Source: a virus
Direction: 5' to 3' (one strand)
Virus record (IMG/VR): IMGVR_UViG_3300005826_000294
Location: 122,330-186,329 of that record
DNA: 64,000 nt
Shown piece by piece: positions 14,736 to 55,047 of the stretch. The stretch's first letter is position 1. The number at the start of each line of letters is the position of its first letter. The notes under the pieces were generated by a model that did not search any database, was not told the DNA's origin, and worked only from the letters and a program-made list of their open reading frames with translations. A program made the position numbers and the translations under genes.

Positions 14736-17282
14736 TTAGAACAATCCTACACTTATGTCTATGAAAATCCAATTGGCTGGATAGTTAGGCTCTACCTCAA
14801 CAACAATATTATATTGTCTTGGTTCAACATCATCTCTGGATACTGATAGATTTCTATAATCAGTAATAAGACCTTTAGAAACAAAAGCATTTAGTAGTTT
14901 TATTGCTTTTTGAGTTAATGATGGAATTAGAGTTTCATCACTAGGTTGCCCAATAAAAGATCTAAAACTACGACGCATTGTTCTTGCTAATTGATCACGG
15001 ATAAAGATAATAGAGATTTCCTCTTCTTCTGGGGCACCGCTTTGAGTAGTAGTTTTACCATGTTGAACTCTTCCACCACCAGTAACTGGCTGAATAACGG
15101 TAATTCCAGCGTCACCAAGTTTATTGAGAACTGTTTGCTTATATACCTTATCATTTAAAATAGTAAAACCTGTAAGTATCTTAAATGTAAGAGGCATTGC
15201 GATATTTGGTTCTCCTGCTAACCAACCGCCCGCGGCTGCAGCAATATAATATCCTGGAATTGTAGTTCGAGTTCCATTTATAACTCTTATAATTTCATCC
15301 GGATAAAAATAAACTACACGAAATGTATCACCAAAATTAGTAGATACTCCATAGTCCGCAAGATCTTCAATATTTCCATCCAAAATCTCTTCTGGATCAT
15401 CACCTTGAATACCTTCTAAAATACCAATATCTTCAACAGCCGCAAGTTCGGTTCCAATAACATTATCAGTTGAAAGACCTTGAAGTGCTCCTGTTAATAA
15501 AACACGCTCTCTCTTATAATAGGTAGAAGACATACGCTCGCAATGAACTCTAAATGCTTGCTGAATTGCCGAGAATGTTTGAGTTGGAAGAGGAACAAGA
15601 ATTTGAACATCTTGTGTTTCCAAAACATCAAGAATACTTGCCCAATTAGCATCATAAAAATCAGCATCATTTTGATCAATATAACTAACTCTTAAACCTT
15701 TCTTCAAAGCAAGTGCTAAATCGGTTGTAAATAGGATTCTCTGTGATTCATTTCCAGGTAATAATAATTGCCATTTAACATTACTTGCCGAAATAAATGA
15801 TCCGGAAGTTCTTGTAATTTTAACTGTATTAGGATCTACAACCTCAGAAATAGAGTATCTACCATCATTAACTGTTCCTGTATAGAAAATATCAATTTCT
15901 TTACTTTGGGTTATAGCTTGTGAAGTAAAAATTGCAGTTTCACTATAAAATGTTGCAGTTGTTCCGACACCAATAGGAGTAATTGTCGCATCATTAGCAC
16001 TTTGTTCAATTTGATCATCAGAAACAACTGTATAACTATATGAATAACCACTTTGACCTGGATCCATAAATTCCTGCATCAATAGAGTATCTACACCAGT
16101 TTGCTCATAAGCAGAAAAGGCGGCTGTAATATCTGGATCATAGAAAGTTATTTTATTAGGAAAAATCTGATCTTCTGTTCCATCAGTATTTAGAATAAAT
16201 AAATTAACTGTTGTATCACCATCTGGTTTTCCAGGATAATCAATAAAGAAAATCAAATCATCAGCATTAGCACTTCCAGTTGCCCCTCCAATACCAGTAA
16301 GAGAATTATAGGCCGGAAGAACAATATCAGAGGTTCTTCTTGGAAGAGGTGGTTTGGCTTGAACTGCTAAAACAGAAGTTGCTCCATTTTCAAAAGCCAT
16401 TTGAGCACCGAGTGAAAGAGTATTTTCAGTGCTTGGAGTTCCATATGTAGCAAATAATTTTCCAGGATCTGTAAAAAGCTTAGGATCTTCTACATCATTA
16501 GAAGCAATATATCGTGCTTCAAGCTTATCCATACTTTGAAGAACTTTACTATCTACCTCAATAGTAAATTTATCACCAACAGCAAAAGGCTGAGCTGGAG
16601 ATGGGTTGTTATAAATAGCAAACGATAAAACACCATTATCAACAACATTTCCATCACTTATCCAAGTGTAAGGTTGTCCATATCCATCGGAAAGTTGTCC
16701 AGAAACAGAACCTCTTACAATAAATGTAGCAGTTTCTCTAATTGGATTGCCAGAACCATCTTTTAGAACACTAGTACATCTTATAGTCCAGGTTTCTGCT
16801 GTAGCATTTGTGTCTGATAAAGTTGGAGTTGATAAGTATCCATCCCCAATATTTGTAGAAGCAGTACTATATAGTTTTCCACCCTTATCAATAATACTAG
16901 CACTCTGCATTTCAATTTTACCAGTAGCAACTTCAAGTTTAGCATCATATTGAGATGAAAAACTTGTTCCATCAATAGTTCCTTCTAAAACTCTAAGTGG
17001 CGACCCATTTAGAAGAAGTGTAGTTCTATTTGTGACGATAGGATAATTTGCTAAACGAAAAAATCTTCCATAACCATCAGAGGTTGCGGTGAAAGTAGGA
17101 TTGAAACCATCTTCTCCATTTCCTTCTGCTGATTCTATAACTGTTTCTTCTCTTCGGCCTTCTCCAATAACACTAAGAATACGAAGACCCCCTGGTATAG
17201 AAAGTGCTCTTTGTAGAGTCCTTATTCTTGAAAATGTATCAGGTTGACTATAACCGACAATTCCTGGAATATTTATTCCCAT
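14736..17282 (-). CDS. Contractile tail sheath protein
   Basis: C-terminal sheath features (HCERMS...RER, AAAAGGWLAG, LTFKIL, GITVI, EISIIFIRD, FIGQ, GLITDY, VEVEPNYPANWIFI); upstream of the tubes; RBS AGGAGG. Confidence 0.88.
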   Translation of the reverse strand: MGINIPGIVGYSQPDTFSRIRTLQRALSIPGGLRILSVIGEGRREETVIESAEGNGEDGFNPTFTATSDGYGRFFRLANYPIVTNRTTLLLNGSPLRVLEGTIDGTSFSSQYDAKLEVATGKIEMQSASIIDKGGKLYSTASTNIGDGYLSTPTLSDTNATAETWTIRCTSVLKDGSGNPIRETATFIVRGSVSGQLSDGYGQPYTWISDGNVVDNGVLSFAIYNNPSPAQPFAVGDKFTIEVDSKVLQSMDKLEARYIASNDVEDPKLFTDPGKLFATYGTPSTENTLSLGAQMAFENGATSVLAVQAKPPLPRRTSDIVLPAYNSLTGIGGATGSANADDLIFFIDYPGKPDGDTTVNLFILNTDGTEDQIFPNKITFYDPDITAAFSAYEQTGVDTLLMQEFMDPGQSGYSYSYTVVSDDQIEQSANDATITPIGVGTTATFYSETAIFTSQAITQSKEIDIFYTGTVNDGRYSISEVVDPNTVKITRTSGSFISASNVKWQLLLPGNESQRILFTTDLALALKKGLRVSYIDQNDADFYDANWASILDVLETQDVQILVPLPTQTFSAIQQAFRVHCERMSSTYYKRERVLLTGALQGLSTDNVIGTELAAVEDIGILEGIQGDDPEEILDGNIEDLADYGVSTNFGDTFRVVYFYPDEIIRVINGTRTTIPGYYIAAAAGGWLAGEPNIAMPLTFKILTGFTILNDKVYKQTVLNKLGDAGITVIQPVTGGGRVQHGKTTTQSGAPEEEEISIIFIRDQLARTMRRSFRSFIGQPSDETLIPSLTQKAIKLLNAFVSKGLITDYRNLSVSRDDVEPRQYNIVVEVEPNYPANWIFIDISVGLF

Positions 17283-17354
17283 TAACCAATCCTCCTAAAT
17301 TTTTTCTATGATGTATATTTCAATAAAATACAGCACTTAATCGCTATACAATAA

Positions 17355-17371
17355 TATTGATAGTTTTTTTA
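17355..17371 (-). promoter_or_regulatory. Candidate phage late promoter motif (TAAAAAAACTATCAATA)
   Basis: Identical 17-mer also at 44477..44493 and a near copy at 58442..58457; about 73 nt upstream of the sheath ATG. Confidence 0.55.
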
Positions 17372-17449
17372 ATTTCCAACATATTGAAATGATAGAGCAA
17401 TTGTTTTCTATCAATTTTTTAACATATTTTAAACTTTAATAGGGGAAAA

Positions 17450-18532: not shown

Positions 18533-18878
18533 TAATGAAGCTTTTTGCGTAAGATGCTTTAAAATAAAAGATAAAAAAAATTTTTATGCCAGAAAAGATA
18601 GTGGCCGTCCGCTTAGTTATTGTATGAAATGTCAAAATGAAGTTAAAATATTAAAATTAGAAGAAAAATTAGAAAGAATTATTGAAGAACGTGGGGGAAT
18701 ATGTAAAGATTGTAAAATATCATATCCAACCCCTATATATGAATTTTACTATGAAAATAAAACATATAATATAAGTAAAGCAAAAAACATGTCTATTGAA
18801 AGAATTAAAAAAGATCTAAAAGATCATATTATGTTATGTAAAAATTGTAGTGCTATTAGAAAATGGGTAGGAAGTTAA
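18513..18878 (+). CDS. Zinc-ribbon protein, degenerate HNH-endonuclease-like
   Basis: CxxC pairs (CVRC, CMKC, CKDC, CKNC); the expected EFHH and LCxxCH appear as EFYY and LCKNCS. Confidence 0.5.
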   Translation: MKPKLDDNEAFCVRCFKIKDKKNFYARKDSGRPLSYCMKCQNEVKILKLEEKLERIIEERGGICKDCKISYPTPIYEFYYENKTYNISKAKNMSIERIKKDLKDHIMLCKNCSAIRKWVGS

Positions 18879-19627
18879 GTATCAAGATCAGATTGATCAA
18901 CAAGAGTTGTATCTGGACTGGCTCCAAATATATTATAATTAAAACAGAAATTTATAGCATGAACTAAGTTTTCAATTGGTAAAGCCCGTCTCCACTCTGA
19001 AAAAGCCTCTACTGTTATACTTTGTAGAAATACATGATCATTTCCCCATTGTTCATTACTTTCATTCCCAATACTAACATTTTTTATAAACAATCCGGCT
19101 TCATAAAGTTCCTGTCTTGCTTTTCCAATAAGAAAAGATGAAATAATATCAGTCAATTCCTCTCTATCTGGAATACTTTCTGAGGCAATTACAATCTCAA
19201 AACTTTGTTCCCAAGCACCAGCAACAATATGATGTGTTGGAACATTAATATAAGACCTTCCACCATAACCATCTAGTACAAGATCTAAACGATATTTTGT
19301 AGTTTGATTTTGATTAAAACTCACATGATAAGTTCTTCCAGAAGAATATTTTACGACAACAGCAGGCCAAAACCTAATATCATATCTAAATGAATCTCCT
19401 ATAAATATTCTTGTAGTTCTTTCTTCTTGAATATCTGGAGGCATATCAGTAAGATCTGGTGTTAATGGAAATCCAAAAGCATCAGTTCTATATTTGTAGA
19501 ATGTATCTTGACGGAAATATTCCCTTAATGCGTCTATAAGAAGATTTTTTCCTTGAGAAACAGCAGTTTGCTGAACAAAACTTGATAATTGAAAAAGATC
19601 GCTATAGACACGATGTGAGGCCGACAT
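18875..19627 (-). CDS. Putative tail terminator / tail completion protein
   Basis: Position upstream of the sheath; alpha/beta pattern (IFIGDSF...WPAVVV...FEIVIASES..DREELTD). Confidence 0.45.
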   Translation of the reverse strand: MSASHRVYSDLFQLSSFVQQTAVSQGKNLLIDALREYFRQDTFYKYRTDAFGFPLTPDLTDMPPDIQEERTTRIFIGDSFRYDIRFWPAVVVKYSSGRTYHVSFNQNQTTKYRLDLVLDGYGGRSYINVPTHHIVAGAWEQSFEIVIASESIPDREELTDIISSFLIGKARQELYEAGLFIKNVSIGNESNEQWGNDHVFLQSITVEAFSEWRRALPIENLVHAINFCFNYNIFGASPDTTLVDQSDLDT

Positions 19628-20133: not shown

Positions 20134-20145
20134 TACTTTCTCCTT

Positions 20146-23100
20146 TTATAAGGTATAATTCACTCTCACTTGTAAAACATATATTGTACCAACAGTATTT
20201 TGTGGTATTAATCTTATCGCATGTACATCTTCATATTGCATTATATTATTTCCAGATGGAATTACAATTTCTTCTTGGATTCCATTACCTTGGGCATCTG
20301 AGGCAGCTCTAATTGGTATTGTTGTTTGTAAACTTCCAAATCCTCTACTTAGATTCCATTCTAATTGAAAATCCCCTTTAACTCCTGCAGATATATTATA
20401 ATAAACTTCAACATTATTGATTGTAGCACCAGCAGGAACTATTTCTGTACTAAAATAAAAATTTAAATTATAATAAGTAGCATCATATGTACTACTAGAA
20501 ACTACCCATCCTCCTCCATAAGTTATCCAACTCGAAAAACTACCACTTATAGCTGAATCTATTACGGCTGCACCATTTGGAAGAACTACATTATAAGTTT
20601 GTCCCTTATTCATATAATCTACATTTTTAGAACCACCATCTGTAATCATAGGCCCAGAAGAAGAAGTTGCAGTAAAATCATTATTTGTGATTAAACAATA
20701 ATATGATACAGACCCAAGTTCTAAAACAGCTTCAGTAGTATATGATACAGTTCCTCTAAATACATTATTATTTATTAAAGTATTTAGAGTAGAATTAATA
20801 TAAAGATGAGTTTTTGTATTACTTTCAGTAGTTATGAAGTTTCCAATCACTTGACTTCGACTTGATTGAAAATCGACTACTCTATTAGTTAATGATAATG
20901 ATGTAGAAATAATATTATTATTGACTAATTTAATATTTATATGAGTTGTATTATGACTCATACTAACTAATGTATAATTATCTGATGAAGTGAATGTATT
21001 ATTAGAAACAACTATATTTGGACAATTAAAGGTTTTTATTGGAGCACAGCAATTTATTATACTATTTTGAGAAACAATAGTCCCATCACAGTTTTCCATA
21101 TATATGCCTTGATCTGAAGAGTTTCCATAAAAATCTCTTACTTTATTTCCAACCATACTATCTTCAATATGATCACCTCCAGAAGTTCCTCCTCCACCAT
21201 CAAATACAATTGCTTGCTTCAACCCTATATTTGATCCACTATTTTTTAATATATTATAAGAAAGAATACAATCTTGACTAGTATTTGATATTAATATCCC
21301 TATTCCAGATGCAGAACTAGAATCCGTTATATTTATAATATTTTTATCTACCAATGTTTTATTAGGATCAATTAATTTTATAATTCCATCAGTTGCGGAT
21401 AAAGAAATATCTGAACTTGTAATTAAATTATTTTTTATTATAGAGTTTTCATCACTATTAAGAATTATTGCTGATACATATAGTTCATTAAATCCGCAAT
21501 CAGAAATTATATTATTACTTGTATTTGTTAAAGCTAAAATGCCTGTATTTATATTTGAAAAATAACAACCTTTAATTTGGCATTCTGTTAAAGTAAGAGC
21601 TTCTATCCCTATATTTGTAGAAACCACACTTGTATAAGAAATATTTGAATTTATAATAAATGAATTCTGTAAAATATTAGTTTTTATAGCCGATCCAGCA
21701 GATGTTGGCGATCCAAGATTAATCATACAATTATTCATATATAAATCTACAATTCCAGTTCCAGCAGAAATATACATAAAATAATTATCATTTGTAGAAG
21801 TTAATGTGCTTTGAGAATTATTAATATGTATAGTGTCAATACTAGTTGTAGAATAAAACACATAAGCATCGACTGAACCAATAGAAGTATCAAAATTAAA
21901 AATACAATTATTAATTATTGTATTAGTTAATGAAGTTGAATATACTATTCTTGAAAAACCTGATGAATTTCTAATATTCTCAAATAAACAATTTTCTAAT
22001 GTTAAATCTACAATGCTCGTTGTAGAATTTCCAATTATAGCAGATGTGCCCGCAGAACTATCCATTTCAATTTTTAAATCTCTAATACAAAGACCTGTAA
22101 TTGAAGTTCCACTTATTGGAGCAAATAAAGTAGTTCCAGAACCTATAATAAATATATTTGGACGAGTTATTATAGAACTACCACTTCTTACATCTCCAAG
22201 AATAGTAACTCCATCTGGAACATATAATGGACCATTAGAAAGATTATGAGTAATAGTCCCACGAACTCTCACTCTTCTTGAAGTTGTTCCACTATTATAA
22301 ATATAATAAAATGCTGATTGTAATGAAGAAAAAGATCCATTAATTTCTTCATCATCTGCTACTAAATCTATTTTATTATCAATATTATTTACAAATCTTC
22401 TCAAATCACGAATATCAGTAACCGTGTTTGAAGAATTAACATCTACTTGAGCTAAAATTACTTTATCCGAACTGTTAATTATTTCTAAAACAGATGGTGT
22501 GGTAAATCCAGAACCAACCTGATCATCCTTCATAAATTGTAAAATACCATCTCCATCTACAAAAATATTATAAGTAGAAATTAAGCCATCTTTTGGAATA
22601 TCTAAACCAGTAGTACTAACAGAATAAATATTTCCATCTACAAGAACCTGTCCACCTTCAACAATAAGACTTCCAGATACTTCAAATCCATAAATTACAC
22701 CATTTCCTCTTAAAAGTGATCTTGGATATGAAATATAATCTCTAGAAAAATCATTTCTTATATCTTTACGTCCTACTGTTCCAAGCAATCTTCGGTCAGA
22801 TAAATGTTTAAACCCGTTAGTATCATGAAGAACTTGTCCTACTTGAACATATTTATCTTCAGATGCTCTTTTATATATTGTAAGGTCTATTGCCTGATCT
22901 GTTGTTGTAGTTAAAAATCCATCATTAGCAATTTCTATATCAACATAATCTACATTATTGTAATCATATATTCTAAATCTATAACCAATAACATCAGAAG
23001 TTGGAAGAATGTATGTAGTTCCCGGATCTGTAACATCAACACTAGAAGCTGGAGATGTTACTGGAGTTCCCATCTTTACAACTTTATCTGAACCAACATT

Positions 23101-25026
23101 CTGAAAATTTATTCTTTTTGTCCCAACAGGAAAATCTCTCGACATTTCAATAATATTGAACCAGTTTTCTGGAGAAGCCGTAGAACCACCAGCCCCTATA
23201 TATTCAACTCGTACTACCCCACGCAACTCCCCGTAATCTTGATCATAACCATCCATAAATAATTCATATAATGTATGAATACCAGTATTCGTAGAAACAC
23301 TAAAAGAATCAGAATAAATTTCAACAGATACATTTGTAGCGGTAGAAAATCCTGAATGACTACCAATGGTTATCGAATTCGATGTTGAAGAGTTAAATAC
23401 ATATGTTCCAGCATCTGGATGATTCTTAATTCTAACAACTCCTGTTTGATCAACTCCAAAAGCAGTTAGATCTTGATCAATATTTTTAATTAATTTAGAA
23501 GTATCTGTAACACCAGAAGCACTAACAATTTTTCGTATTCCATAAAAATTATATCCATCAATATAAAATCTTCTAGGACCAACACTATAATCAGATTCAT
23601 TTCCTACGAAGCCTAATGCTTCCCAAGCACTTTCAGATGGCGTAGAAACATCACGAAACTCAACATATCCATCTGGTTCATCAAAAGCAATTCCTATTTC
23701 TCCCTTATGTGTAAATGCTATGAGAGGATAGTTATAAGTATCACTTTTAAAAATTTTATTTAAAGCAATAGAAAGACCTTCTGGAGTCCAAATGCTGGGA
23801 GTTGAGTTTATAACAGGATATGTTTGAAGTGCTTGATATGCATCTATATCTATTGTTTCTCCTGTTGCCCAAGCAATTTTGATATATTTACTAGTACTTG
23901 TTATTTTTCTTGTGTCTAATCCATTACTAAGTAAATAAGGAGCACTTGGATGGATAAGTTGAAGTAAAGATCCTCCAAGATTTCCAGGAATTGTATCATG
24001 ACGTATTGCTAATTTTAGCATACTGGGTTCTGTAGTTTCTTCAATATTCCTATAAATAGTAGCTGTGGGACTTACACCACTTATAGGAATAGCTCTAAAA
24101 AAATAAACTATTCCAGTAGAAGCATTTACATTATCGATATTTCTTGTATAAGTCTCTGTTCCAATAACAATATCTATTCTATCTCCTCTTAAAACTTGAG
24201 CTAAATCAGAAGGAACCGAGGTAAATGCTACATTTTTATCACCAGCAGATATATTATTAATGGCTGATGATGAAATAATAGTTACCCCATGGTTAGTAGA
24301 ACCATAAAATGTTTTTTGAGTATTTAAAATACCATTACTATGTTGTTCATCTTGATGTATGGTTAAAGTTGTAACTCCAAGAGCATCGAGTTTTTCAATA
24401 GCCGTTTGAACTTCATCAGCATTTATGAATGTATCTGTATCATCAAAAGAAATAGCACTCGCATTATGAGCATCAATAGGGTCAGATATATGATCAACAA
24501 TTCTTGTATCAAGGTCATTAATTATGCCTTGTAAATTATAATTAACATATGTTCCTAAATATCCATCTATATCACTTGTGCGATGACGACTAAAAGTTGA
24601 AGGATGTGCTACATGTCTTGCGAGATTAGTAATATCTCCCTGAACTACTTTATTAAGAGCATCATGCTCTACACGTAAGGCCCCAATTAATTCTCTTAAT
24701 ATTTTTGTAGAATAGTTTAAATCTAATTTTGATTCTGTAATACCAGCATTATTACCAACCATACTATCTGTAATTGGTAAAGTAACTAAACCAATAGTAG
24801 AAAGAGCAGATGCTTTAATAGTTCCATCAACATTTAAAGATTGATTAAGTCTTGAAGCAACATCTGTATTAGAACCATGTGGGTTTATTCCCAAAGTTTG
24901 CTCAATGTTAAAAACTGCACTACGTATACCATTAATGGCGTCTCCGCCTATCTCAACGATATTATCATCTATTCTAATTAAAGTTACATCATCGTCAAGT
25001 TCATTAGGATATTTGCTATCAACCAT
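20146..25026 (-). CDS. Large virion fibre/tailspike-like protein with C-terminal right-handed beta-helix
   Basis: Asn/Ile/Ser ladder repeats (IINNCIFN, IIKNNLI, ILSYNIL, IVSQNSI, VVSNNTF); N-terminus homologous to that of 26140..30174. Confidence 0.7.
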   Translation of the reverse strand: MVDSKYPNELDDDVTLIRIDDNIVEIGGDAINGIRSAVFNIEQTLGINPHGSNTDVASRLNQSLNVDGTIKASALSTIGLVTLPITDSMVGNNAGITESKLDLNYSTKILRELIGALRVEHDALNKVVQGDITNLARHVAHPSTFSRHRTSDIDGYLGTYVNYNLQGIINDLDTRIVDHISDPIDAHNASAISFDDTDTFINADEVQTAIEKLDALGVTTLTIHQDEQHSNGILNTQKTFYGSTNHGVTIISSSAINNISAGDKNVAFTSVPSDLAQVLRGDRIDIVIGTETYTRNIDNVNASTGIVYFFRAIPISGVSPTATIYRNIEETTEPSMLKLAIRHDTIPGNLGGSLLQLIHPSAPYLLSNGLDTRKITSTSKYIKIAWATGETIDIDAYQALQTYPVINSTPSIWTPEGLSIALNKIFKSDTYNYPLIAFTHKGEIGIAFDEPDGYVEFRDVSTPSESAWEALGFVGNESDYSVGPRRFYIDGYNFYGIRKIVSASGVTDTSKLIKNIDQDLTAFGVDQTGVVRIKNHPDAGTYVFNSSTSNSITIGSHSGFSTATNVSVEIYSDSFSVSTNTGIHTLYELFMDGYDQDYGELRGVVRVEYIGAGGSTASPENWFNIIEMSRDFPVGTKRINFQNVGSDKVVKMGTPVTSPASSVDVTDPGTTYILPTSDVIGYRFRIYDYNNVDYVDIEIANDGFLTTTTDQAIDLTIYKRASEDKYVQVGQVLHDTNGFKHLSDRRLLGTVGRKDIRNDFSRDYISYPRSLLRGNGVIYGFEVSGSLIVEGGQVLVDGNIYSVSTTGLDIPKDGLISTYNIFVDGDGILQFMKDDQVGSGFTTPSVLEIINSSDKVILAQVDVNSSNTVTDIRDLRRFVNNIDNKIDLVADDEEINGSFSSLQSAFYYIYNSGTTSRRVRVRGTITHNLSNGPLYVPDGVTILGDVRSGSSIITRPNIFIIGSGTTLFAPISGTSITGLCIRDLKIEMDSSAGTSAIIGNSTTSIVDLTLENCLFENIRNSSGFSRIVYSTSLTNTIINNCIFNFDTSIGSVDAYVFYSTTSIDTIHINNSQSTLTSTNDNYFMYISAGTGIVDLYMNNCMINLGSPTSAGSAIKTNILQNSFIINSNISYTSVVSTNIGIEALTLTECQIKGCYFSNINTGILALTNTSNNIISDCGFNELYVSAIILNSDENSIIKNNLITSSDISLSATDGIIKLIDPNKTLVDKNIINITDSSSASGIGILISNTSQDCILSYNILKNSGSNIGLKQAIVFDGGGGTSGGDHIEDSMVGNKVRDFYGNSSDQGIYMENCDGTIVSQNSIINCCAPIKTFNCPNIVVSNNTFTSSDNYTLVSMSHNTTHINIKLVNNNIISTSLSLTNRVVDFQSSRSQVIGNFITTESNTKTHLYINSTLNTLINNNVFRGTVSYTTEAVLELGSVSYYCLITNNDFTATSSSGPMITDGGSKNVDYMNKGQTYNVVLPNGAAVIDSAISGSFSSWITYGGGWVVSSSTYDATYYNLNFYFSTEIVPAGATINNVEVYYNISAGVKGDFQLEWNLSRGFGSLQTTIPIRAASDAQGNGIQEEIVIPSGNNIMQYEDVHAIRLIPQNTVGTIYVLQVRVNYTL

Positions 25027-25044
25027 AAGGTTTCCTCCGGAAAA

Positions 25045-25698: not shown

Positions 25699-26130
25699 CT
25701 ATTCAGCATTATGTAATGCTTCTAAAAGTGATGTATAAAATGAAACAGATTGAGTAAATTTTTCATATTTTTGTAAATATTTTTCTGCTTCTTTCTCATC
25801 GGATTGTAATAAAGAGTTATACATATTTAAAGCATTTTCTGCTAAAATATTAGCTTTTTCCTTATTCATATAATAAATTGCTGTATTATTCGGAGTAACA
25901 AAATCATTATTCTCATATCCATCAATTATAGTGATTATATCATATCCATCAAATCTATATGATTGATCATTAATATGTTCATAAATAAATGGAGGAAACT
26001 CTCTACCATCTAAAAGTTTTACTGTTTGATTATTTTTAATTTCTTCATTATTTAATTCTGCTACTCCACTATCAAATTCTTCTTCTGAAATTTTCGTATA
26101 CATTTTTTTTATTTGAAACTCTATACTCAT
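25699..26130 (-). CDS. Hypothetical protein (two DGY motifs)
   Basis: ORF with AAGGTG RBS, in operon. Confidence 0.55.
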   Translation of the reverse strand: MSIEFQIKKMYTKISEEEFDSGVAELNNEEIKNNQTVKLLDGREFPPFIYEHINDQSYRFDGYDIITIIDGYENNDFVTPNNTAIYYMNKEKANILAENALNMYNSLLQSDEKEAEKYLQKYEKFTQSVSFYTSLLEALHNAE

Positions 26131-30174: not shown

Positions 30175-30175
30175 A

Positions 30176-34479: not shown

Positions 34480-34648
34480 CCAACTCTTCTTTTTGTAATT
34501 CAGCAATAGCAAGTGCTTGGTTTAAATTTGCTATACTTTCTTTCGCCACTTCAATTGCGTGCTGTAATCCTGCTATTTCTACTTTTACTTGCTTTAATGT
34601 AGATGGTTCGTTTATTCCTAAATACGCAATATACTTTTTAACTAACAT
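34466..34648 (-). CDS. Small coiled-coil protein ending DGYK
   Basis: AAGGA RBS; heptad pattern; overlaps both neighbouring endonuclease ORFs. Confidence 0.5.
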   Translation of the reverse strand: MLVKKYIAYLGINEPSTLKQVKVEIAGLQHAIEVAKESIANLNQALAIAELQKEELDGYK

Positions 34649-39988: not shown

Positions 39989-40277
39989 AAGGTCTTTCTA
40001 CAACAAATTCAGCAATATTTTCTATTGTATCGTTCCCATATTCTCCCTGCATTATTGCTGTATAATTTCCTATAATACTAAAAGATGTTTCCAACATATA
40101 TGTGCCCTTTTTAAGTCTAAACATAGGGCGAGGATAACCAACAAGGTCAGTCCCATTAGGTTGAACAACTCTTTCAATTCTTGGATTTGCTATCTCTACA
40201 GGCACTCCATTTACTACAACTTCCCACGCTATTCTTGCGATATTGGGAGTTGGTTGAAAAGGTCCAATTCCAGGCAT
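39954..40277 (-). CDS. Small beta-rich putative virion protein
   Basis: ORF in the structural operon, AGGAGG RBS; Ig-like strand pattern. Confidence 0.5.
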   Translation of the reverse strand: MPGIGPFQPTPNIARIAWEVVVNGVPVEIANPRIERVVQPNGTDLVGYPRPMFRLKKGTYMLETSFSIIGNYTAIMQGEYGNDTIENIAEFVVERPYGFPRIEIACD

Positions 40278-40555
40278 TATACTGGTGTCCTCCTATATGT
40301 TATAAAAAGTGGGCAACCGACTTCTGGAGGAAAAGGATCATCATCTATAAATGTAAATTCTAATGCTCCTGTCTCAAAAAAATCATTATTCTTTGTATAT
40401 GAAACTCCATTATAAATCACTATCAATGAATCAGGAATATATTCTTGAGTTGTATTAAATATAAGTTTATATCCGTCAATTTGATCAGTTATGTCCTCTT
40501 CAACATGTAAGTGATCTGGAGCAACTGTTCCATCAAATAAAGAAGAAATCGGCAT
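40277..40555 (-). CDS. Small putative virion protein
   Basis: IDGYKLIF...SLIVIYNGV...DFFE pattern common in phage fibre domains. Confidence 0.5.
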   Translation of the reverse strand: MPISSLFDGTVAPDHLHVEEDITDQIDGYKLIFNTTQEYIPDSLIVIYNGVSYTKNNDFFETGALEFTFIDDDPFPPEVGCPLFITYRRTPV

Positions 40556-44396: not shown

Positions 44397-44476
44397 TAAC
44401 TTAACTCCTCTTTAACAAAAACTAATTAACATAACTGCCCTAAGGCACGACTTTATAATCTACATACATATGAGAT

Positions 44477-44493: not shown

Positions 44494-44496
44494 TAA

Positions 44497-46086: not shown

Positions 46087-46096
46087 TTACTTTCCC

Positions 46097-47231: not shown

Positions 47232-47254
47232 AAGCACCTCCTATTGACGGCACT

Positions 47255-48355
47255 TTAACTATCATCATAACTCAAACAATAAAAAGTTGCTGTTGCTAAC
47301 GAACCTCCTAACTCAACATCATGTTGTAATTTAACTAAAATTTCCATACCATAATTTCCAAATATCTCTGTAACTGCTTGATAGTTCCAAGGATATGTGA
47401 TTACATCAACATCAAGATCTCTCCAAGTTGGAGTTTGACATGTTGTAGCAGGAATTGGGGGTTTAGAACCATTAGCCTCATTAATATAATCTATTTGTGA
47501 TTTATAAATAGTTGGATTCCCAAGAGGAATTTTTGTACCACTTGGATATGGAGTTGGTGTGTATTGTGGAGCAAAAACATCAACTAATCCATATGGTTGA
47601 AATGTAACAGAATCTTTAATTGAAATATTGCTACTAAATTGAACCTCAGTAGATACAATTTTTAACTTTTTTCCACTTTGTGGTCTTAAAATCCAATCAG
47701 ATCCATTTACTTCATATGTATCTACAGTGATAGTCTCAGATTCAGATAATGGAGTTAAAAATGTAACTCTAGAATTACGATAATCTACTATAAAATCCCC
47801 TCCATATCCATCATGAGGGTCTTGTTCTGTTTTCTCTACATCATCAACATAAACTTTTAATCTAGGGACATAACCTTCTTCTGTTGTAATAAAATCTTCA
47901 TCACTATATTTTCCATGATAATTATCAATCCAACATTTTCCAGTTGGACTATCATAATTGGTGTGATCACCAGAATCAACTAAAGTCTGTCCAGATACTT
48001 TTATAGATTTAAAATACCAAGTAGTTTTATCAGTCCAATTTGGTGTAATCGCTGTATATCTCGATCCTTCAGTGCTTTCAACAGATACACGAAGAACATT
48101 ATCTTTTGTTACTTTTTCTAATGAATTTACTTCTTCTATAGGAACTCCATCATGTCCATTAAGTGTAAATCCAAGAAGAGATTCATCTCCAACATCTAAT
48201 TCATCTTTCATAAAAACACTAATAGTATCTCCAATAACATTTATATGACTTAATGCTATTTTTATTTCACTATCGCGAATCTCTTCAGTCAATTTTTCAA
48301 TATCTACAGCTTCATTTAAAGTATCTGATGCTACAGAGTATGTATATTCTGCCAT
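47255..48355 (-). CDS. Putative virion structural protein
   Basis: Acidic, beta-rich ORF in the fibre block; DFIVDYRNSRVTF motif. Confidence 0.5.
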   Translation of the reverse strand: MAEYTYSVASDTLNEAVDIEKLTEEIRDSEIKIALSHINVIGDTISVFMKDELDVGDESLLGFTLNGHDGVPIEEVNSLEKVTKDNVLRVSVESTEGSRYTAITPNWTDKTTWYFKSIKVSGQTLVDSGDHTNYDSPTGKCWIDNYHGKYSDEDFITTEEGYVPRLKVYVDDVEKTEQDPHDGYGGDFIVDYRNSRVTFLTPLSESETITVDTYEVNGSDWILRPQSGKKLKIVSTEVQFSSNISIKDSVTFQPYGLVDVFAPQYTPTPYPSGTKIPLGNPTIYKSQIDYINEANGSKPPIPATTCQTPTWRDLDVDVITYPWNYQAVTEIFGNYGMEILVKLQHDVELGGSLATATFYCLSYDDS

Positions 48356-48939
48356 TATATTCTCCTTACAGAAACTTTACTATCTTTAATTGATATTTCT
48401 TTACCATTTTTTGTTGTTGATGCTTGAAATTTTATACAATGATAACCAGATTCCCATTCTATATTTAAAAAACTACACTGGGTAATCCAACTCTCACTGT
48501 CTAATGATTCAAGAACATATAAGTCTTCATTATCTATATTAACTCTTAAAGAAATTAATCCTTTTTTATTTTTTCTTTTAACATTTGTGGTCCAATCTAT
48601 ACGATAATTACCAGAACAAAAAGGACTATTTGGGTTTATAGATATAATTGTCATTGGCTCTGTAGAAGATGTATTTATCTCTTGTTCTTGTGTTCCTTCT
48701 AATTCATTTATTAAAGTATTATTTTCTATTCCAAAATCTACAATATCTTTTTCTTCCTGATTCATTTCAATTATATTATATCCATCATATCCATCATACC
48801 CATCAATTTTCCAATATTTTGAAGGAATGTCTTCTACATTAGATAAATCAGGATTAATTATCCAATCTTCTGTTGAATAGTCAGGAGTATTAACTGATAA
48901 TAAGTATTCTTTTGTAGTCTTATTTAAAACATTCGCCAT
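48355..48939 (-). CDS. Putative virion/fibre-associated protein with a DGYDGYDGY run
   Basis: SVNTPDY...WIINPDLS...KYWK N-terminus; C-terminal beta sandwich. Confidence 0.5.
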   Translation of the reverse strand: MANVLNKTTKEYLLSVNTPDYSTEDWIINPDLSNVEDIPSKYWKIDGYDGYDGYNIIEMNQEEKDIVDFGIENNTLINELEGTQEQEINTSSTEPMTIISINPNSPFCSGNYRIDWTTNVKRKNKKGLISLRVNIDNEDLYVLESLDSESWITQCSFLNIEWESGYHCIKFQASTTKNGKEISIKDSKVSVRRI

Positions 48940-48941
48940 AA

Positions 48942-49580
48942 CTATCTCCTACGAGGTCTTAAAGCCGCATCATATACATAACTAGGAGCACCAGATGCTG
49001 AAGAAAAATTAATCTGACTTTGTCCCATATTTTTTACCACCCCTGTTCCAGAAATTGTAGAACCATTTGCTCCACCAAAAAGAGTCAAACGAGTAGTCAT
49101 TCCATATACAATTGAATCACTTCCACGAGAATTATAAATTGTTAATGCTTCGGACGCATTTAATTTTCTTGTATATAATCTAATATCATATAAACTTCCA
49201 TTAAAATAATTAGTTGTTCCATATCTACTAAATAAAGCCGCAAGACCACTTTGAGGAGTATTAACAGATGTATTTGTATTTATTAATGCTCCATTAACAT
49301 ACATCTCTGCCGTATTATTAAAATCATTCCATGTACATACAAAATGATATAATACTCCAATTGAAAGAGTATAATTTAACCCACTGCCTTCATTACCAAA
49401 ATCATTATAAAACGTTGTTCCATCTATTCTGCCTTCAAAATCGTTTCCAGTTCCAAAAAAACGCTGAACACCAGTTAAAGAATTAGCACGAATCCAAAAA
49501 CTAATAGATCCTATTATACCAGGAGAAAATGATGATACACTTTGTGCTCCATAGCCAGTTCCAGGTGCTGAAAGTCCCAT
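48942..49580 (-). CDS. LamG/concanavalin A-like lectin domain protein
   Basis: SISFWI...YHFVCTW...MYVNG...YFNGSLYDIRLYTRKL; start moved to ATG 49580 (TAATG overlap). Confidence 0.75.
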   Translation of the reverse strand: MGLSAPGTGYGAQSVSSFSPGIIGSISFWIRANSLTGVQRFFGTGNDFEGRIDGTTFYNDFGNEGSGLNYTLSIGVLYHFVCTWNDFNNTAEMYVNGALINTNTSVNTPQSGLAALFSRYGTTNYFNGSLYDIRLYTRKLNASEALTIYNSRGSDSIVYGMTTRLTLFGGANGSTISGTGVVKNMGQSQINFSSASGAPSYVYDAALRPRRR

Positions 49581-52500
49581 TAGCTCCATCCTATCGTTAT
49601 AGAATGTAATAACCAATCACCAGGTAAAGTATCAGTTGGAACATTACGACATAACTCAAAAAGATATGTAACTCCAACTGTTAATCCTAATGTGCTTATA
49701 GCTATTGTTTGAGAATCCTTTTGATAATACACATTGTTAGGCATAGATAAGTTTGTTAATAATGTTGGAGATCCCCATGCAGGTATAACAGCATTGTCAG
49801 GAATTGCTCTTTTATATAAGTTTAATCCAACATTTGCTGTTGTGGCTGCCGTGGCTCTACGACTAAGAAATCCTAAAATAATGTTTGTAGCCCCTGTTGG
49901 AACACGAATTGTAAATCCTACACCTTCTACTGTTGTATCATCAAATGCTCTTACTGACAATGCTGTGTTATTAGCATCTGGAATAAGAGGTGCTAGTGAA
50001 TTAACTGCCCAGTCTGAACTTACAGGAGATTCTAATTGATCAGCTTGAAATATCTTATGAGGAACAATAGAACTTCCACCACTAACCGCCGCCCATGATG
50101 GATTTGAACCAACACCATTTGTTTTTAAATAATAACCAGATGTTCCATAACCTAAACGAACCCAGTTTGTTCCATTATGATATAAAATATCCCCTTGAAC
50201 AGGATTTCCAGCAGCCTGTACTGATCTTACTGTTGTTGAGTTTCCATTATTTATATTAGTAGTGTGACCAGTAACCAAATTGTCTGCTAAATAACAATTA
50301 TTTGTATTTGCACCAGAAGCAATTCTTATTCCATCCCCAGTGTTATTTAAAATTCTATTACTAGCAATAAGAATATTAGTACTATTAGCATCTGCTGTTA
50401 CATAAATACCATGACTACCATTACCATGAATATGGTTATTAGAAATTAAACTATTTGTATCTACAGTACATTCAATTCCACTTCCACCATTGCTTGCTAT
50501 GTGACATGAAGTAACTAAACTATCTTCTCCAGTCCATATTCCTTCTCCAACATTGTTTTCAATAGTACACATAGAAATTACATCTTCTTCTCCATCTGTA
50601 TCAATGCCTACTCCACCATTGTTACTTGAAACACAACTAGAAATTATTGTTGAGTTAGAACCTATTGCGGTTTCTATACCCTCAGCATCATTATAGTTTA
50701 AAACACAATGAGAAATAAGTGTAGATACTGCTCCACTTTGAACTAAAATACCATTTGATCCATTATTACAGGCATTGGTAGATGAAATGGCAACAGTATT
50801 ACAACCAGATCCAACTACAATACCATTTCCAACATTACCAGATACAAGTCCTGAAAAAGATACTGATCTACAATTACTATATGTAATTCCTACTCCACAT
50901 TGAACAACTCCAATATCAGAAAAAGCCGCTGATCCGGAATCTTCAACTACTACACCAACATTACAACCTTGTATTTCCATTCTACGAAAAATACAACTAA
51001 TTGCTCCTCTTACTAATAATGCATTTCCTGTTGCTCCACTTAAAGTTATATTATCTATATTAGCAGAAGTAACCGCTGAGGTTCCAAGCATTGCTTGTCC
51101 AGATATTGTTAAACCTTCATAAGTTCCAGCAACAGTTAAATGAGTATTATCTGTAATACTAGCAATTTGATAAAATGTTCCTCCAATAGCAATGAAATCT
51201 CCTGGAGATAAATTTGTAAAAGTCGTTCCACTACCTACTACAGCAGATGTTCCAGATGTTATAGATATAGTCCCAGATTCTTCTGTTGTACCTCCATTTC
51301 CATCAATAGTAACACTATATCCATTAGATAAATCTATAATACAATCATCTTCTCCTAATAGAAGACCTCCATCTGGAACCACTATATTTGCTGTCTCAAC
51401 ATATGTTCCTGTTCTTACAAAAACAGATTTAGCTCCAGATGTAAAAGCAGCTGAAGGAAGTGTGTAATCTCCACCAGAAGGGGCAACAATAGCATCATAT
51501 AAAGTTTGACCTCCACCAGGGCCCGCTGGGCCCGTAGCTCCAGATGCTTCTGCATCACGGATTACTAAACCACAAGCATTAGCCGTAGTTATAAAATCTT
51601 TATCGTTAAATTCCGTTGCTTGAATTTTTATTTTATCGCCATCATTTAATTCGGCTAAAATTGTTGCAGATCCACCACCAGATAAATCATTTTTAGATAC
51701 TCCTGATCTAATACGACTTCCGCCTATTTCATTATATCCACCACCTGTATCTAATACTAAACGAGCAAGAGCATGTCCATCATTCCCACCAGTTACTTCA
51801 AAACTCATATAATATGTAATTTCATACCAACCATCAGTATTTATTTCTACAACGGCAGAATCTGTTGTATGTGTAAATGCGGAATCTTCACGGACTTCAG
51901 TATCAAGAGTTATATCAACCCAACTTGGACTATCAGGAATATCAATTCCACCAGCAGCATCATAAGCAAAAAATAAAGCTCTACTACTTCCAGATCCTCC
52001 TGGAGGCTCTGCCCATGTCCCATCTGCTCTAAGATAATTAATAATTCCACCACCAAGTTTTGGTAGAAGACCATGATAAGATGTTGTTGAATTTAAATCT
52101 GTATTATCATCAGGAGAAGCTAAATCATCTAATTTAATAGCATCATCTCCTCCTGACTGATGAGTAGATGCGTGTAATGGAAGAGAACCTGGTATAGAAG
52201 CACATTGCCATCTAGAAGATGTTGTTGTATAAGACAGAGCAACTCCACTTCCTGATTTTATAATCAAATCTGAATCATTTGGTAATGCTAATCTTTGAGT
52301 ACTAGTAGATCCCAGATCTTCATGTTTTAGAGTTAGATCATAATCAGATAAATTTGTAACCCACATAAATTTCCCATGATCAACTTGTGAAAACCCAGTG
52401 ACTTCAAAATTTTGATTTGCCGAATGAAATTGAGCCATTCCATAATCTTCAATATCAACATTATCATAAGAGGTTGTAGATCCGACGTTTATTCCATATG

Positions 52501-53656
52501 GACTTTGGGCGATACTTCTAATATTGGCAGCAGTATCAGTTTGAATAGGATCGCCCATAGTAGCAATACGTCCATCATCGCTAATAATAAAACTACTATT
52601 TTGTAAGATTTTACCTGTTGTCCCATCCCATCGAGCGGCGGCATTATCTGTAGAACTACCCGGTCCCGAAATATCTCCAGATCCTGATCCTGATACAACA
52701 TATTCAATATTTCCAGAACCAGAATTATATGCTAAAATATATCCATCAGCAATTCCTGAATCATCAACATTAACTCCCATAATTTGATAAGCATCTTGTC
52801 TATCAGCTAAAACCCCATTAAGCCCAGCAACATTTATTTCATCATCTCCACCATTTTGATGCCTTGGAGCATGTAATAGAAAATCAGAATTAAGATTAGT
52901 TATTTCGCTTTGTAGATAAGCATCTTGAGAAATTGAATCAGAATTAAGATTAGTTAATTCACTCTGTAAATAAGCATCTTGACTTATAGAATCAAAGTTT
53001 AAATTAGTTATTTCGCTTTGTAGATAAGCATCTTGAGAAATTGAATCAGAATTAAGATTAGTTAATTCACTCTGTAAATAAGCATCTTGACTTATAGAAT
53101 CAGAGTTTAAATTGGTTATTTCACTCTGTAGATAAGCATCGGCAGAAATATAATCAATATAAATACTTGAAATTTCACCTTGTAAATAGGCATCTTGACT
53201 TATAGAATCAGAGTTTAAATTAGTTAATTCACTCTGTAAATAAGCATCTTGATTTATAGAATCAGAGTTTAAATTAGTTAATTCACTCTGTAAATAAGCA
53301 TCTTGATTTGTTATAGTTTGAAATATATCAGGTAAATCATATCCATCAACCAAATTAACATTAATTATATTATAGCCCTCAAGATCCAAATTACCATTAA
53401 TTGTAGTATTATTAATAACAATTTCAGAATCGGCCGCTTCTTGTGGAGTATTAGATGGATCTGTTTCAACAAAAACCCATCCTAAAGTTTCCATATAATT
53501 ATCTAAATCATCTTTTGAAGTTGATGGTGCTGTAACATCCCAAACAACTAAAGAAGCAATATAACCAGAAGAAATAGAGGAAGCATCAGCAGGTGGAACT
53601 TGGTTTTTAACCTTATTAATATCTACACCAGAAAATTTATATCTATAAACAGGCAT
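49580..53656 (-). CDS. Modular fibre/tailspike: coiled-coil stalk, His motifs, C1q/BclA-like domain, beta-helix
   Basis: 18-aa repeats; HAPRHQNGGDD and HASTHQSGGDD; DGWYEITY...LNDGDKIKIQ; GATGPAGPG; NxxxGI beta-helix ladder. Confidence 0.72.
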   Translation of the reverse strand: MPVYRYKFSGVDINKVKNQVPPADASSISSGYIASLVVWDVTAPSTSKDDLDNYMETLGWVFVETDPSNTPQEAADSEIVINNTTINGNLDLEGYNIINVNLVDGYDLPDIFQTITNQDAYLQSELTNLNSDSINQDAYLQSELTNLNSDSISQDAYLQGEISSIYIDYISADAYLQSEITNLNSDSISQDAYLQSELTNLNSDSISQDAYLQSEITNLNFDSISQDAYLQSELTNLNSDSISQDAYLQSEITNLNSDFLLHAPRHQNGGDDEINVAGLNGVLADRQDAYQIMGVNVDDSGIADGYILAYNSGSGNIEYVVSGSGSGDISGPGSSTDNAAARWDGTTGKILQNSSFIISDDGRIATMGDPIQTDTAANIRSIAQSPYGINVGSTTSYDNVDIEDYGMAQFHSANQNFEVTGFSQVDHGKFMWVTNLSDYDLTLKHEDLGSTSTQRLALPNDSDLIIKSGSGVALSYTTTSSRWQCASIPGSLPLHASTHQSGGDDAIKLDDLASPDDNTDLNSTTSYHGLLPKLGGGIINYLRADGTWAEPPGGSGSSRALFFAYDAAGGIDIPDSPSWVDITLDTEVREDSAFTHTTDSAVVEINTDGWYEITYYMSFEVTGGNDGHALARLVLDTGGGYNEIGGSRIRSGVSKNDLSGGGSATILAELNDGDKIKIQATEFNDKDFITTANACGLVIRDAEASGATGPAGPGGGQTLYDAIVAPSGGDYTLPSAAFTSGAKSVFVRTGTYVETANIVVPDGGLLLGEDDCIIDLSNGYSVTIDGNGGTTEESGTISITSGTSAVVGSGTTFTNLSPGDFIAIGGTFYQIASITDNTHLTVAGTYEGLTISGQAMLGTSAVTSANIDNITLSGATGNALLVRGAISCIFRRMEIQGCNVGVVVEDSGSAAFSDIGVVQCGVGITYSNCRSVSFSGLVSGNVGNGIVVGSGCNTVAISSTNACNNGSNGILVQSGAVSTLISHCVLNYNDAEGIETAIGSNSTIISSCVSSNNGGVGIDTDGEEDVISMCTIENNVGEGIWTGEDSLVTSCHIASNGGSGIECTVDTNSLISNNHIHGNGSHGIYVTADANSTNILIASNRILNNTGDGIRIASGANTNNCYLADNLVTGHTTNINNGNSTTVRSVQAAGNPVQGDILYHNGTNWVRLGYGTSGYYLKTNGVGSNPSWAAVSGGSSIVPHKIFQADQLESPVSSDWAVNSLAPLIPDANNTALSVRAFDDTTVEGVGFTIRVPTGATNIILGFLSRRATAATTANVGLNLYKRAIPDNAVIPAWGSPTLLTNLSMPNNVYYQKDSQTIAISTLGLTVGVTYLFELCRNVPTDTLPGDWLLHSITIGWS
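52874..53305. repeat. Eight tandem 54-bp coding repeats (QDAYLQSE[L/I]TNLNSDSIS)
   Basis: Visible tandem array; in frame with 49580..53656. Confidence 0.9.
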
Positions 53657-54396
53657 TATGATGCTACCTCCAAACTAGCAACTATATTATCAGGACTACT
53701 GGAAATTGAAGAAGATTTATTTACTCTTATTGCTATAAGATCACCAGCAGATACATTTGCCGAATTTACTAAATCTGAACCATCTTGAGCAGTATTAGAC
53801 ATGGCAACTACTAATGAAGAACCAGATCCATTAACCAATACTGTATAAGTGATTGTGGCAGAACCAGATCCAGCGGAATTATGACGAACTCTAAGATTTT
53901 TAAGAACTCCAGAATATGGAATTCTCATTGAAGCAACAGTTGTCTCAGCAACAGAATCATCATATCCTGGAGTTAAATATCTAACTGTTGTTGAAGTAGC
54001 AATATCATCATCTCCCCATATTAAAATAGCATGAACAAGATCTCCTACCTGAACACTTTTCTTATTATAACCATCAGCACTATCCTCTATAACTACTAAA
54101 TCAGAAAATACTGGATCGGTTTTTCCACTAATACCACTGATTTCATTAGCAACATTATCATGAATCGCATCATTATCAATGCTGGTTCCAGAGTTTGTTA
54201 TTTCAACCCAAGTTGGAGTGGTTTCTGTTAAAACCCACCAGGTAAGAGTATCTATTTCTTTTGCTATTTTCCCAATATCAGTAGATGTAAAACCAGATGC
54301 TCCAGTTCGTGCCGAAGAATCTGCATATTCATATGCGTGTGAAATATGTATTCCATCTGTTATATCTTGCTGACTATGTTTAGGATGACAAGTCAT
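53656..54396 (-). CDS. Putative fibre/virion protein
   Basis: WWVL....PTW and AIHDNVANEI motifs; C-terminal jelly-roll-like strands. Confidence 0.5.
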   Translation of the reverse strand: MTCHPKHSQQDITDGIHISHAYEYADSSARTGASGFTSTDIGKIAKEIDTLTWWVLTETTPTWVEITNSGTSIDNDAIHDNVANEISGISGKTDPVFSDLVVIEDSADGYNKKSVQVGDLVHAILIWGDDDIATSTTVRYLTPGYDDSVAETTVASMRIPYSGVLKNLRVRHNSAGSGSATITYTVLVNGSGSSLVVAMSNTAQDGSDLVNSANVSAGDLIAIRVNKSSSISSSPDNIVASLEVAS

Positions 54397-54399
54397 AAT

Positions 54400-55047
54400 T
54401 TACCCCACAATCAATAGTATTCCATTATCATTTATTAGCCAACCGCATTCTCCAGTTAAAGGTAATGATGGTGTTAAATCTCCATCAACAGAATATAGTA
54501 TCTGCCCACAACATGTTGGAGGTGTTATTGATATTTTAAGTTGTTCATTGCTTCCTTCGTTTTCAACACTAATATCAATGCCATATCCCTCAATAATTTT
54601 ATTTTCTAAATAACCTGCAGAAGTATCATTTGAAGATACTTTTACTAATTCATCTCCACCAGTGCTTCCACCACCACCAGTTGTATTTATCCATATAGCA
54701 GATCCTGCTGTATTATCTATTAAAACATATTCATAACCATCTGTTGTATCAATCCACCTTAATCCAACATCATATCCATCATTTATATCTTCATTGATTG
54801 TTGGAGAAATAGAAGAAATTACATATAACGAATCATCTCCGCTTCCAAGGTGTGTATTTATATGAAGATCTGGTGGTAATGTATCTGGATGTCTTAAATT
54901 AAAAACGCCATACGCATCCTTAGCATAGAAATAACCATCACTATATCGCATTTCACGTATAGATCCAGGTAATCCATAACCATCTTCAAGAAATTTAATT
55001 CCATCAGCTTGGTTAATTCCAGCAAATTCATCTGGAGTGCGAGGCAT
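54400..55047 (-). CDS. Putative fibre/virion protein (4 DGY)
   Basis: PTINED..DGYDVGLRWIDT...YVLID...AIW and VKVSSNDTSAGYLENKI fibre motifs. Confidence 0.55.
   Translation of the reverse strand: MPRTPDEFAGINQADGIKFLEDGYGLPGSIREMRYSDGYFYAKDAYGVFNLRHPDTLPPDLHINTHLGSGDDSLYVISSISPTINEDINDGYDVGLRWIDTTDGYEYVLIDNTAGSAIWINTTGGGGSTGGDELVKVSSNDTSAGYLENKIIEGYGIDISVENEGSNEQLKISITPPTCCGQILYSVDGDLTPSLPLTGECGWLINDNGILLIVG

Follow-up and report, generated by a model that had tools for sequence, protein, structure and literature searches.

An Asp-Gly-Tyr code on the outer virion proteins of an uncultured jumbo myophage and a candidate glycosyltransferase that may read it

The tail region of an uncultured phage raises the question of why one short tripeptide, Asp-Gly-Tyr (DGY), recurs in protein after protein of the virion exterior. 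The region analyzed here, called the window, is a 64,000-nucleotide stretch that spans positions 122,330-186,329 of the 301,683-bp virus record IMGVR_UViG_3300005826_000294 (G000). The record encodes a contractile tail (sheath, baseplate J, and a gp25-like protein), terminase, portal, DnaE, and tubulin, and these genes together identify it as a jumbo myophage (302 kb). A sequence-only reading of window positions 14736-55047 had pointed to repeated DGY and Asp-Ala-Tyr (DAY) in neck, sheath, and fiber proteins, and had proposed either an acceptor site for modification or a docking tag. The DGY observation is real, and outer virion parts carry the motif in the manner of a code that is read in trans. 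Of the options first offered, the best fit is O-glycosylation of Tyr by an enzyme of the phage, and it is moderately likely, judged from the sequences, that DGY, relaxed to D-[G/A/S]-Y in this phage's subclade, is a Tyr-O-glycosylation sequon that receives its first sugar from a candidate core GT4 glycosyltransferase.

Enrichment of DGY on outer virion proteins

DGY is the most enriched tripeptide of the contig, with 101 occurrences against 16.2 expected over 317 open reading frames (ORFs; 97,215 aa), and DAY occurs 48 times against 10.4 expected. The related tripeptides DGF (25 against 15.7), EGY (21 against 15.9), and NGY (22 against 19.1) stay near chance, and DGF, unlike DGY, is not enriched in the structural modules. 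When all ORFs of the baseplate and neck/fiber modules are taken, unselected on the motif, they hold 64 DGY against 5.1 expected; in this phage and its clade, outer particle proteins carry DGY at about 12 times the chance level and inner tail parts have almost none. The motif reaches far beyond 14736-55047, and the rest of the genome has 9 DGY against 8.7 expected once six outlying virion-type proteins, chosen with their DGY counts in view, are taken out (G000 27624, 28541, 31947, 192192, 263993, and 274854).

Within 14736-55047, the count of 40 DGY in 14 named proteins proved exact (8,123 aa; 2.3 expected), and the roughly 19 additional DAY comprise 18 in those proteins and one in a 294-aa ORF; two further DGY sit in endonuclease ORFs (17450-18532 and 30176-31057). 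The enrichment survives comparison with shuffled sequences, since all 36 ORFs of this interval, again unselected (13,337 aa), contain 42 DGY, whereas 2,000 shuffles average 2.9 and never exceed 10, and a null that preserves dipeptides yields 8.1. For DAY, the same ORFs give 19 against 1.85 expected. The 8-mer contexts of the 42 DGY are all different, so DGY is no repeat artefact, an explanation that holds in part for DAY, 11 of whose 19 occurrences stem from two internal repeats. A DNA-level motif is ruled out as well, as in the structural ORFs 64 copies of GAYGGNTAY are in frame, one is off-frame, and none is antisense. The codon variation reported by the first reading needs qualification, because here usage is skewed, with GAT-GGA-TAT encoding 59 of the 101 DGY, and it is in GC-rich relatives that codons become more varied; the protein-level selection drawn from it stands nonetheless on the in-frame signal and on this change of codons with GC. 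Residues around the motif are nearly free, the strongest bias among the commonest residues at positions -3 to +5 being 2.3-fold.

The inner tail module (291..13237, minus strand, as are all genes and ORFs of the window given below with the coordinates of a protein) consists of two tube proteins, chaperones, a 747-aa tape-measure-like protein, a 261-aa protein, a 1568-aa hub-like protein, and a 751-aa spike-like protein, labels that come partly from gene order. As the sequence-only reading had it, these ORFs (3,996 aa) have no DGY among 17 DG; only 0.5 would be expected from composition, and the absence therefore counts only against the outer rate and in relatives. Set against the outer proteins (64 DGY in 186 DG), the difference is significant (Fisher P=0.002). 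A generic bias of tail proteins is ruled out by three cultured controls without DGY excess, namely the tail of phage G (3 against 2.3) and the Streptomyces phages Faust (2 against 1.8) and Karimac (2 against 1.6). The capsid ORF pieces found in this phage also lack DGY. The major capsid gene itself lies in pieces at G000 187,656-192,111 (L010-L011) with other ORFs between, an arrangement that suggests introns; a 178-aa piece matches the PHROG major head protein, and a 75-aa ORF represents the N terminus.

Site turnover, tyrosine specificity, and relaxation across the clade

Of 161 related loci, which range from 28 to 57% GC, 159 have more DGY than expected; the loci were found by sheath or baseplate and overlap one another. 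Six relatives read nearly whole, three of them without their last 2-9 kb, have 61-104 DGY against 15-21 expected, an excess in 6/6. Protein families were dereplicated at 75%, and relatedness still inflates the family counts. In most carrier families the number of DGY per protein is kept while positions shift, and the proposal of repeated gain on outer virion parts is borne out by this turnover. Sequences of the 2303-aa baseplate protein average 6.0 DGY, distributed among 77 columns of which none is occupied in at least 80% of 55 sequences, and those of the 948-aa wedge protein average 5.5 among 38 columns, again with none in 80% of sequences. The 1626-aa fiber-type orthologues (11 sequences) hold 48 DGY against 3.6 expected, and those of the 658-aa protein have 2-7 each in 6/6 relatives. 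Among the dereplicated families compared, the only fixed site is in the 250-aa protein encoded ahead of the sheath (18875..19627), for which a neck or terminator role is suggested by gene order and which has no family match; its DGY (19265-19273) falls in one column in 29/32 orthologues. A 222-aa gene ahead of the capsid gene also keeps one DGY in 7/7.

The tyrosine is the demanding position. In the 430 cases in which a DGY column retains DG without Tyr, the place of Tyr is mostly taken by T, V, E, D, I, or S; Phe is there 9 times and Trp once, so the hydroxyl rather than ring packing is favored. The isoAsp chemistry that had been offered as an option leaves this need for Tyr over Phe unexplained. 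Avoidance by inner proteins also becomes measurable among relatives, in that the 1568-aa hub-like family has no DGY in 309 DG (9.9 expected), yet 37 DGF, and tube orthologues have none in 105 DG, for a joint 0 of 414; the 751-aa spike-like family, with 12 DGY in 301 DG against 9.1 expected, is at chance.

It is highly improbable that DGY is no more than a common beta-turn or hairpin element in beta-rich fiber proteins, amplified by repeats. The tail sheath (848 aa; 14736..17282), matched by Pfam and PHROG sheath families, has DGY at residues 69, 147, and 199, and in an AlphaFold2 (AF2) model with a predicted local distance difference test score (pLDDT) of 87 all three fall in loops or at the tips of hairpins. 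About 320 of the 848 residues can be aligned with sheaths of solved structure (best Z 34.2, root-mean-square deviation (rmsd) 2.5), and the three sites appear from secondary structure to lie in inserted domains; such domains face outward in sheaths. A variable site at residues 431-433 is instead in a predicted strand. DG does sit at turns, two of the sheath sites form conserved D-x-Y-G hairpins in which A, S, or E is accepted, and the repeat-borne DAY fit a structural role. Against it, sites turn over in homologues rather than being conserved in them, sheath DG turns acquire Tyr at columns where Phe is not seen, Phe nearly never substitutes elsewhere, and other phages' tails have no excess. 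Plain structure is largely refuted for DGY, although single DxYG sites and DAY within repeats may plausibly be structural.

A structural preference also does not predict what happens to the middle residue. In four baseplate proteins, the DGY columns of 46 distant loci hold 515 Gly, no Ala, 1 Ser, and 20 other residues in the middle position, whereas 18 near loci that include this phage have 237 Gly, 73 Ala, 34 Ser, and 15 others; the near, mid, and far groups are hand lists drawn from baseplate-J identity and sheath clades. In the near subclade the relaxation covers 17 homologous columns in the four proteins, 13 of them outside the DxYG hairpin. Outside it DGY is strict (relaxed at 1/64 sites), and a sister group of 7 loci has Ala solely in DAYG. 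A trans-acting reader, unlike a folding preference, predicts that several proteins of one lineage change together, and the view of the motif as a trans-read code is strengthened accordingly; relaxation to D-[G/A/S]-Y also explains the DAY of this phage.

Candidate readers of the motif

We take the reader to be an enzyme, and the candidate is a core GT4, which would be fed by a co-conserved enzyme resembling nucleoside diphosphate (NDP)-glucose 4,6-dehydratase. Its gene lies at G000 93,367-95,604, about 27 kb left of the window and directly after baseplate/fiber genes, as the first gene of a 35-kb sugar cluster left of the baseplate genes (GT2, GT4, GT47, and sugar-pathway genes at G000 61-96 kb). 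It is the sole glycosyltransferase of the cluster common to all six whole relatives, and it is present in 24/25 relatives picked by sheath or baseplate, and the one exception is a fragment that stops 2 kb farther on. Because 8 of the 24 genomes behind the tallies for GT2, nucleotidyltransferase, zincin, and flavin adenine dinucleotide (FAD) oxidoreductase were reached through GT4 itself, the 24/25 figure is the unbiased tally for GT4. A DGY-rich wedge gene lies at most 10 kb upstream in 77/80 GT4 loci, and the other three have less than 600 bp upstream. The cassette runs from GT4 through variable genes to an RmlB-like dehydratase and tubulin, and it shrinks to versions without GT2. In G026 (446 kb, 100% complete, gene content known from family and protein searches), GT4 stands next to one dehydratase.

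The protein belongs to Pfam PF00534/PF13692 and has the E-x7-E motif, whose E285 and E293 are retained in 99-100% of the 121 sequences compared. Its model shows an intact GT-B fold (pLDDT 92.5), and the best structural match is a chlorovirus NY-2A glycosyltransferase (3oy2; Z 33.4, rmsd 3.1, 357 aligned residues, 15% identity); matches in a viral library are to giant-virus, lipothrixvirus, and uncultured-phage glycosyltransferases. The protein O-glycosyltransferases GtfA (Z 21.6) and SdgB (Z 20.9) rank below other GT4s, and NCBIfam scores are far under cut-off. In the near clade, GT4 carries a fused second GT4 domain and has Gln104, a site in the N-terminal half, in 13/13 sequences against Asn in 65/66 others.

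In the mechanism that we favor, GT4 would add the first sugar to the Tyr hydroxyl of DGY, and the variable GT2, GT4, GT47, methyltransferase, and aminotransferase genes between GT4 and tubulin would extend the glycan into a strain-specific coat that may shield the particle or tune adsorption. Tube and hub proteins would avoid the tag because sugars could hinder assembly or injection. The wider picture, in which a clade-wide three-residue sequon served by one soluble GT4 places a strain-variable coat on dozens of outer proteins while sequon and enzyme co-evolve, is on these sequence patterns possible rather than probable.

An unlikely alternative is that DGY docks a noncatalytic partner, such as a decoration or cement protein or a chaperone, or provides multivalent host adhesion, with the Tyr hydroxyl and the Asp as epitope. 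Docking would explain turnover, tandem runs, Tyr specificity, and coordinated relaxation equally well, several uncharacterized core proteins and a trigger factor could serve as partners, and the single conserved sites of the 250-aa and 222-aa pre-capsid proteins suit it. The nearly free flanks, however, offer little surface for stable docking; the avoidance of the motif by the hub-like family is explained less well, and the fixed position of GT4 beside a variable glycan cassette is left unexplained.

Quite unlikely, too, is a different enzymatic reader, namely a nucleotidyltransferase acting on Tyr, a zincin that nicks at the motif, or a host enzyme, with the glycan cluster acting on the host surface instead. 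Tyr nucleotidylation is carried out by related folds (GlnD/GlnE). The nucleotidyltransferase is of class II, CCA/poly(A) type, and truncated (~255 aa against 390-580 aa in solved relatives), and it is fixed in the terminase/portal operon (L013:6740-7504, G000 236,790-237,557); it is found in 13/13 complete genomes with its catalytic motifs kept. Phage G, however, has a nucleotidyltransferase of similar size (22% identity, E 0.004) and no DGY excess, and CCA-adding enzymes of jumbo phages have an RNA-repair reading in the passages available of PMC7824862. The zincin is a 162-aa HExxH ORF without DGY (33090..33578) among the neck/fiber genes, directly before the DGY-rich 658-aa gene; its HExxH is conserved in 7/7 aligned sequences, and its Atlas neighbors are Peptidase_M78/SprT at 0.90-0.91. 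It has no family match, and we take it to resemble the DUF4157 motif of contractile injection systems. Cutting sheath and baseplate at several moving sites would be hard to rationalize, and for a host enzyme no host family was seen to be constant.

Glycosylation with a different detail, in which another phage or host transferase initiates or a neighboring residue is the acceptor and GT4 only extends, is very unlikely. GT2 genes occur in 23/24 genomes, and the fold neighbors of GT4 are mostly enzymes that join sugar to sugar or act on small molecules, both of which suit another initiator. GT2 is ruled out in that role, given that the cassettes of G026, G030, and L329 have none and no GT2 match was found anywhere in G026; around DGY no flanking Ser/Thr preference is seen, which speaks against a neighboring acceptor.

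Other enzymes were rejected on their distribution, and the sulfotransferases, radical S-adenosylmethionine (SAM) enzymes, and kinases that the sequence-only reading suggested did not hold up, being unshared across DGY-rich relatives. Two ORFs with what we take by eye to be sulfotransferase-like motifs, without family match, have no homologue in six DGY-rich relatives, which disposes of sulfation, and adenosine phosphosulfate (APS) kinase is not among the genes in at least 5/6 relatives. The radical SAM enzyme is not shared across relatives, PrkA kinase is likewise not among the genes present in at least 5/6, and the FAD oxidoreductase, in 18/24 genomes (10/13 complete), is hence not universal. 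The PrkA-DUF444-SpoVR operon is itself phage-borne (L003:4897-9430, G000 44.3-48.8 kb), and near relatives G003 and G004 have it too.

Several observations weigh against the assignment of DGY to GT4 glycosylation. The nucleotidyltransferase (22/24 full-length matches) and the zincin (24/24 genomes) are as universal as GT4. The structural neighbors of GT4 act mostly on small molecules or glycans, its distant homologues in Streptomyces phages occur without DGY, and a further GT4-family gene lies elsewhere in G026. The relaxation and the GT4 change share a single branch (n=1) with other changes, such as N202L and an insertion, so their match is suggestive only, and distant members with a separate second GT4 remain mostly strict. 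The variable sheath site in a predicted strand also counts against it, and nonstructural core enzymes show no clear avoidance of DGY (9 against 13.1). A DGY-negative relative was sought among the relatives and none was found; sister clade P0088-P0120 (L389-L393) had seemed one, having lost DGY from the sheath (1 in 33 sequences, on a sheath tree that is a quick tree only) and from the 669-aa family, and it is ruled out since fibers and baseplate keep the motif (63 against 8.1 and 45 against 6.8 outside the sheath), as the clade keeps GT4. In G012, GT4 is split at an 11-T run, yet DGY persists (73 against 15); the split (L286:5169-6292) falls just before the second conserved Glu and may be an assembly slip or phase variation. 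Finally, Iyer et al. read similar jumbo-phage clusters as modifiers of the host surface, as far as the available passages go (PMC7824862).

The tail region and its relation to known systems

The carriers of the motif are in part established virion proteins and in part small ORFs, so that the first reading's description of them all as virion parts holds for the sheath and fiber types and lacks support for the 60-aa ORF and several other small ones. Following the 250-aa gene in window coordinates are a 1626-aa fiber-type protein (20146..25026; 4 DGY, 2 DAY) with a weak beta-helix match, a 143-aa ORF without family match (25699..26130; 2 DGY), and a 1347-aa beta-helix tailspike-type protein (26140..30183; 2 DGY, 1 DAY) matching Beta_helix/NosD and PHROG tail spike. 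The 658-aa virion-type protein (31054..33030), with a weak PHROG virion structural match, has 7 DGY, five of them in a run at 31957-32016. Beyond the zincin-like ORF are a 60-aa ORF with a terminal DGYK (34466..34648), a 294-aa core protein that is adaptor-like by inference (38191..39075) and has DAY here and DGY at other positions in distant relatives, a 92-aa ORF (40277..40555; 1 DGY), and a 720-aa repeat-containing fiber-type protein without family match (40953..43115; 8 DGY, 5 DAY). A 366-aa ORF with 1 DGY and a 194-aa ORF with a tandem DGYDGYDGY at 48778-48804 together occupy 47255..48939, and a 1358-aa beta-helix/tail-fiber protein (49580..53656) has 2 DGY and 9 DAY, 8 of the latter in an 18-aa repeat. 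The last carriers are a 246-aa ORF (1 DGY) and a 215-aa ORF (4 DGY, 1 DAY) at 53656..55047.

Endonuclease-type ORFs (LAGLIDADG, HNH-repeat, and DUF4379) are dense at 11899-14717, 17450-18878, 30176-31057, 33550-38190, and 59788-64000, where they break up the structural operon; among the places interrupted are the junction of the two tube genes and that of tube and sheath. Among the fiber genes is an AAA ATPase of the proteasome ARC/Mpa type (44497-46086, minus strand; TIGR03689, E 2e-75, below cut-off), which may hint at a host with a Pup-proteasome. Polyvalent proteins are encoded near the head genes (L011:16868-19918 and L012:3677-12229), one of 1017 aa with topoisomerase IB, 2H phosphoesterase, and weak Tyr-phosphatase domains and one of 2851 aa with ligase, DJ-1, and LigD domains.

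Searches with the sheath, terminase, and 250-aa protein found no close cultured relative. Among cultured phages the sheath matched only phage G and an Eggerthella phage, in alignments covering 18% of the length; among the matches listed for the terminase all were below 26%, and the 250-aa protein matched no cultured relative. Two sheath relatives (L450 and L451) binned in bacterial metagenome-assembled genomes (Hydrogenedentes and Bacteroidales) are probably binned phage contigs and not host evidence. Family B DNA polymerase (PolB) is given as a Moraphage marker in the available part of PMC12619734; this contig, which may be incomplete, encodes DnaE, and no PolB match was found among the ORFs scanned. 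The Pfam scan took in 228/317 ORFs, and among these no hydroxymethyl-base synthase or TET/JBP gene of DNA hypermodification was matched.

If the assignment is true, then, as far as the literature searched goes, no short sequon for Tyr glycosylation would have been described before, nor, in a tailed phage, a modification code that spans the virion. The large glycan clusters of jumbo phages, at present interpreted as modifiers of host surface or DNA, would gain a purpose open to testing, and glyco-engineering would gain a useful tool in a soluble enzyme that recognizes a tag of three residues. Whatever the reader, DGY counts sort the clade's hypothetical proteins into outer and inner virion parts. 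Nothing relevant on a DGY or Asp-Gly-Tyr motif in phages was found in the literature, in which subscription papers were thinly covered.

Several known systems resemble the one proposed, which would work like known virion glycosylation, its membership of that group being putative. Bacteroidota D-(S/T)-x and Campylobacter D/E-x-N-x-S/T sequons are short and share with DGY an upstream Asp, although the acceptor here would be Tyr. These sequons are served by periplasmic membrane oligosaccharyltransferases, a family without a match in the Pfam scans of the contig ORFs. Chloroviruses, giant viruses, and archaeal viruses with GT4-like proteins glycosylate their virions; the chlorovirus NY-2A protein shares the GT-B fold, its PDB title says "putative," and the fold says nothing of the acceptor. 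The Tyr-glycosylating PaTox and Yersinia effectors are of a different enzyme family from GT4. As described in the available passages of PMC12645811, PaTox and the Yersinia effectors glycosylate Tyr on Rho and, as soluble bacterial glycosyltransferases using NDP-sugars, are similar in kind to the reader proposed here, but they act on a single folded host target and no tripeptide sequon appears in those passages. Polysaccharide-modification clusters of jumbo phages, in the part of PMC7824862 available, contain NAD-dependent epimerases/dehydratases and several glycosyltransferase families and are polymorphic between related phages; those clusters are sporadic, whereas here one GT4 and a dehydratase occur throughout the clade at a fixed place beside virion genes. 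A further system is the virion glycosylation of mycobacteriophages Che8, Corndog, and Myrna (Freeman et al. 2023, as relayed in passages of PMC12363180 and PMC12619734), in which phage-encoded glycosyltransferases are proposed to coat virion proteins as a shield. Phage-encoded glycosyltransferase genes are present here as well, and from them virion glycosylation is predicted for this phage. In the Che8-type system the carriers are capsid and tail-tube subunits, at their C termini (PMC12619734), whereas here tube orthologues and capsid ORF pieces lack DGY, other sites on them being possible, and a movable tripeptide is carried by about 30 outer proteins.

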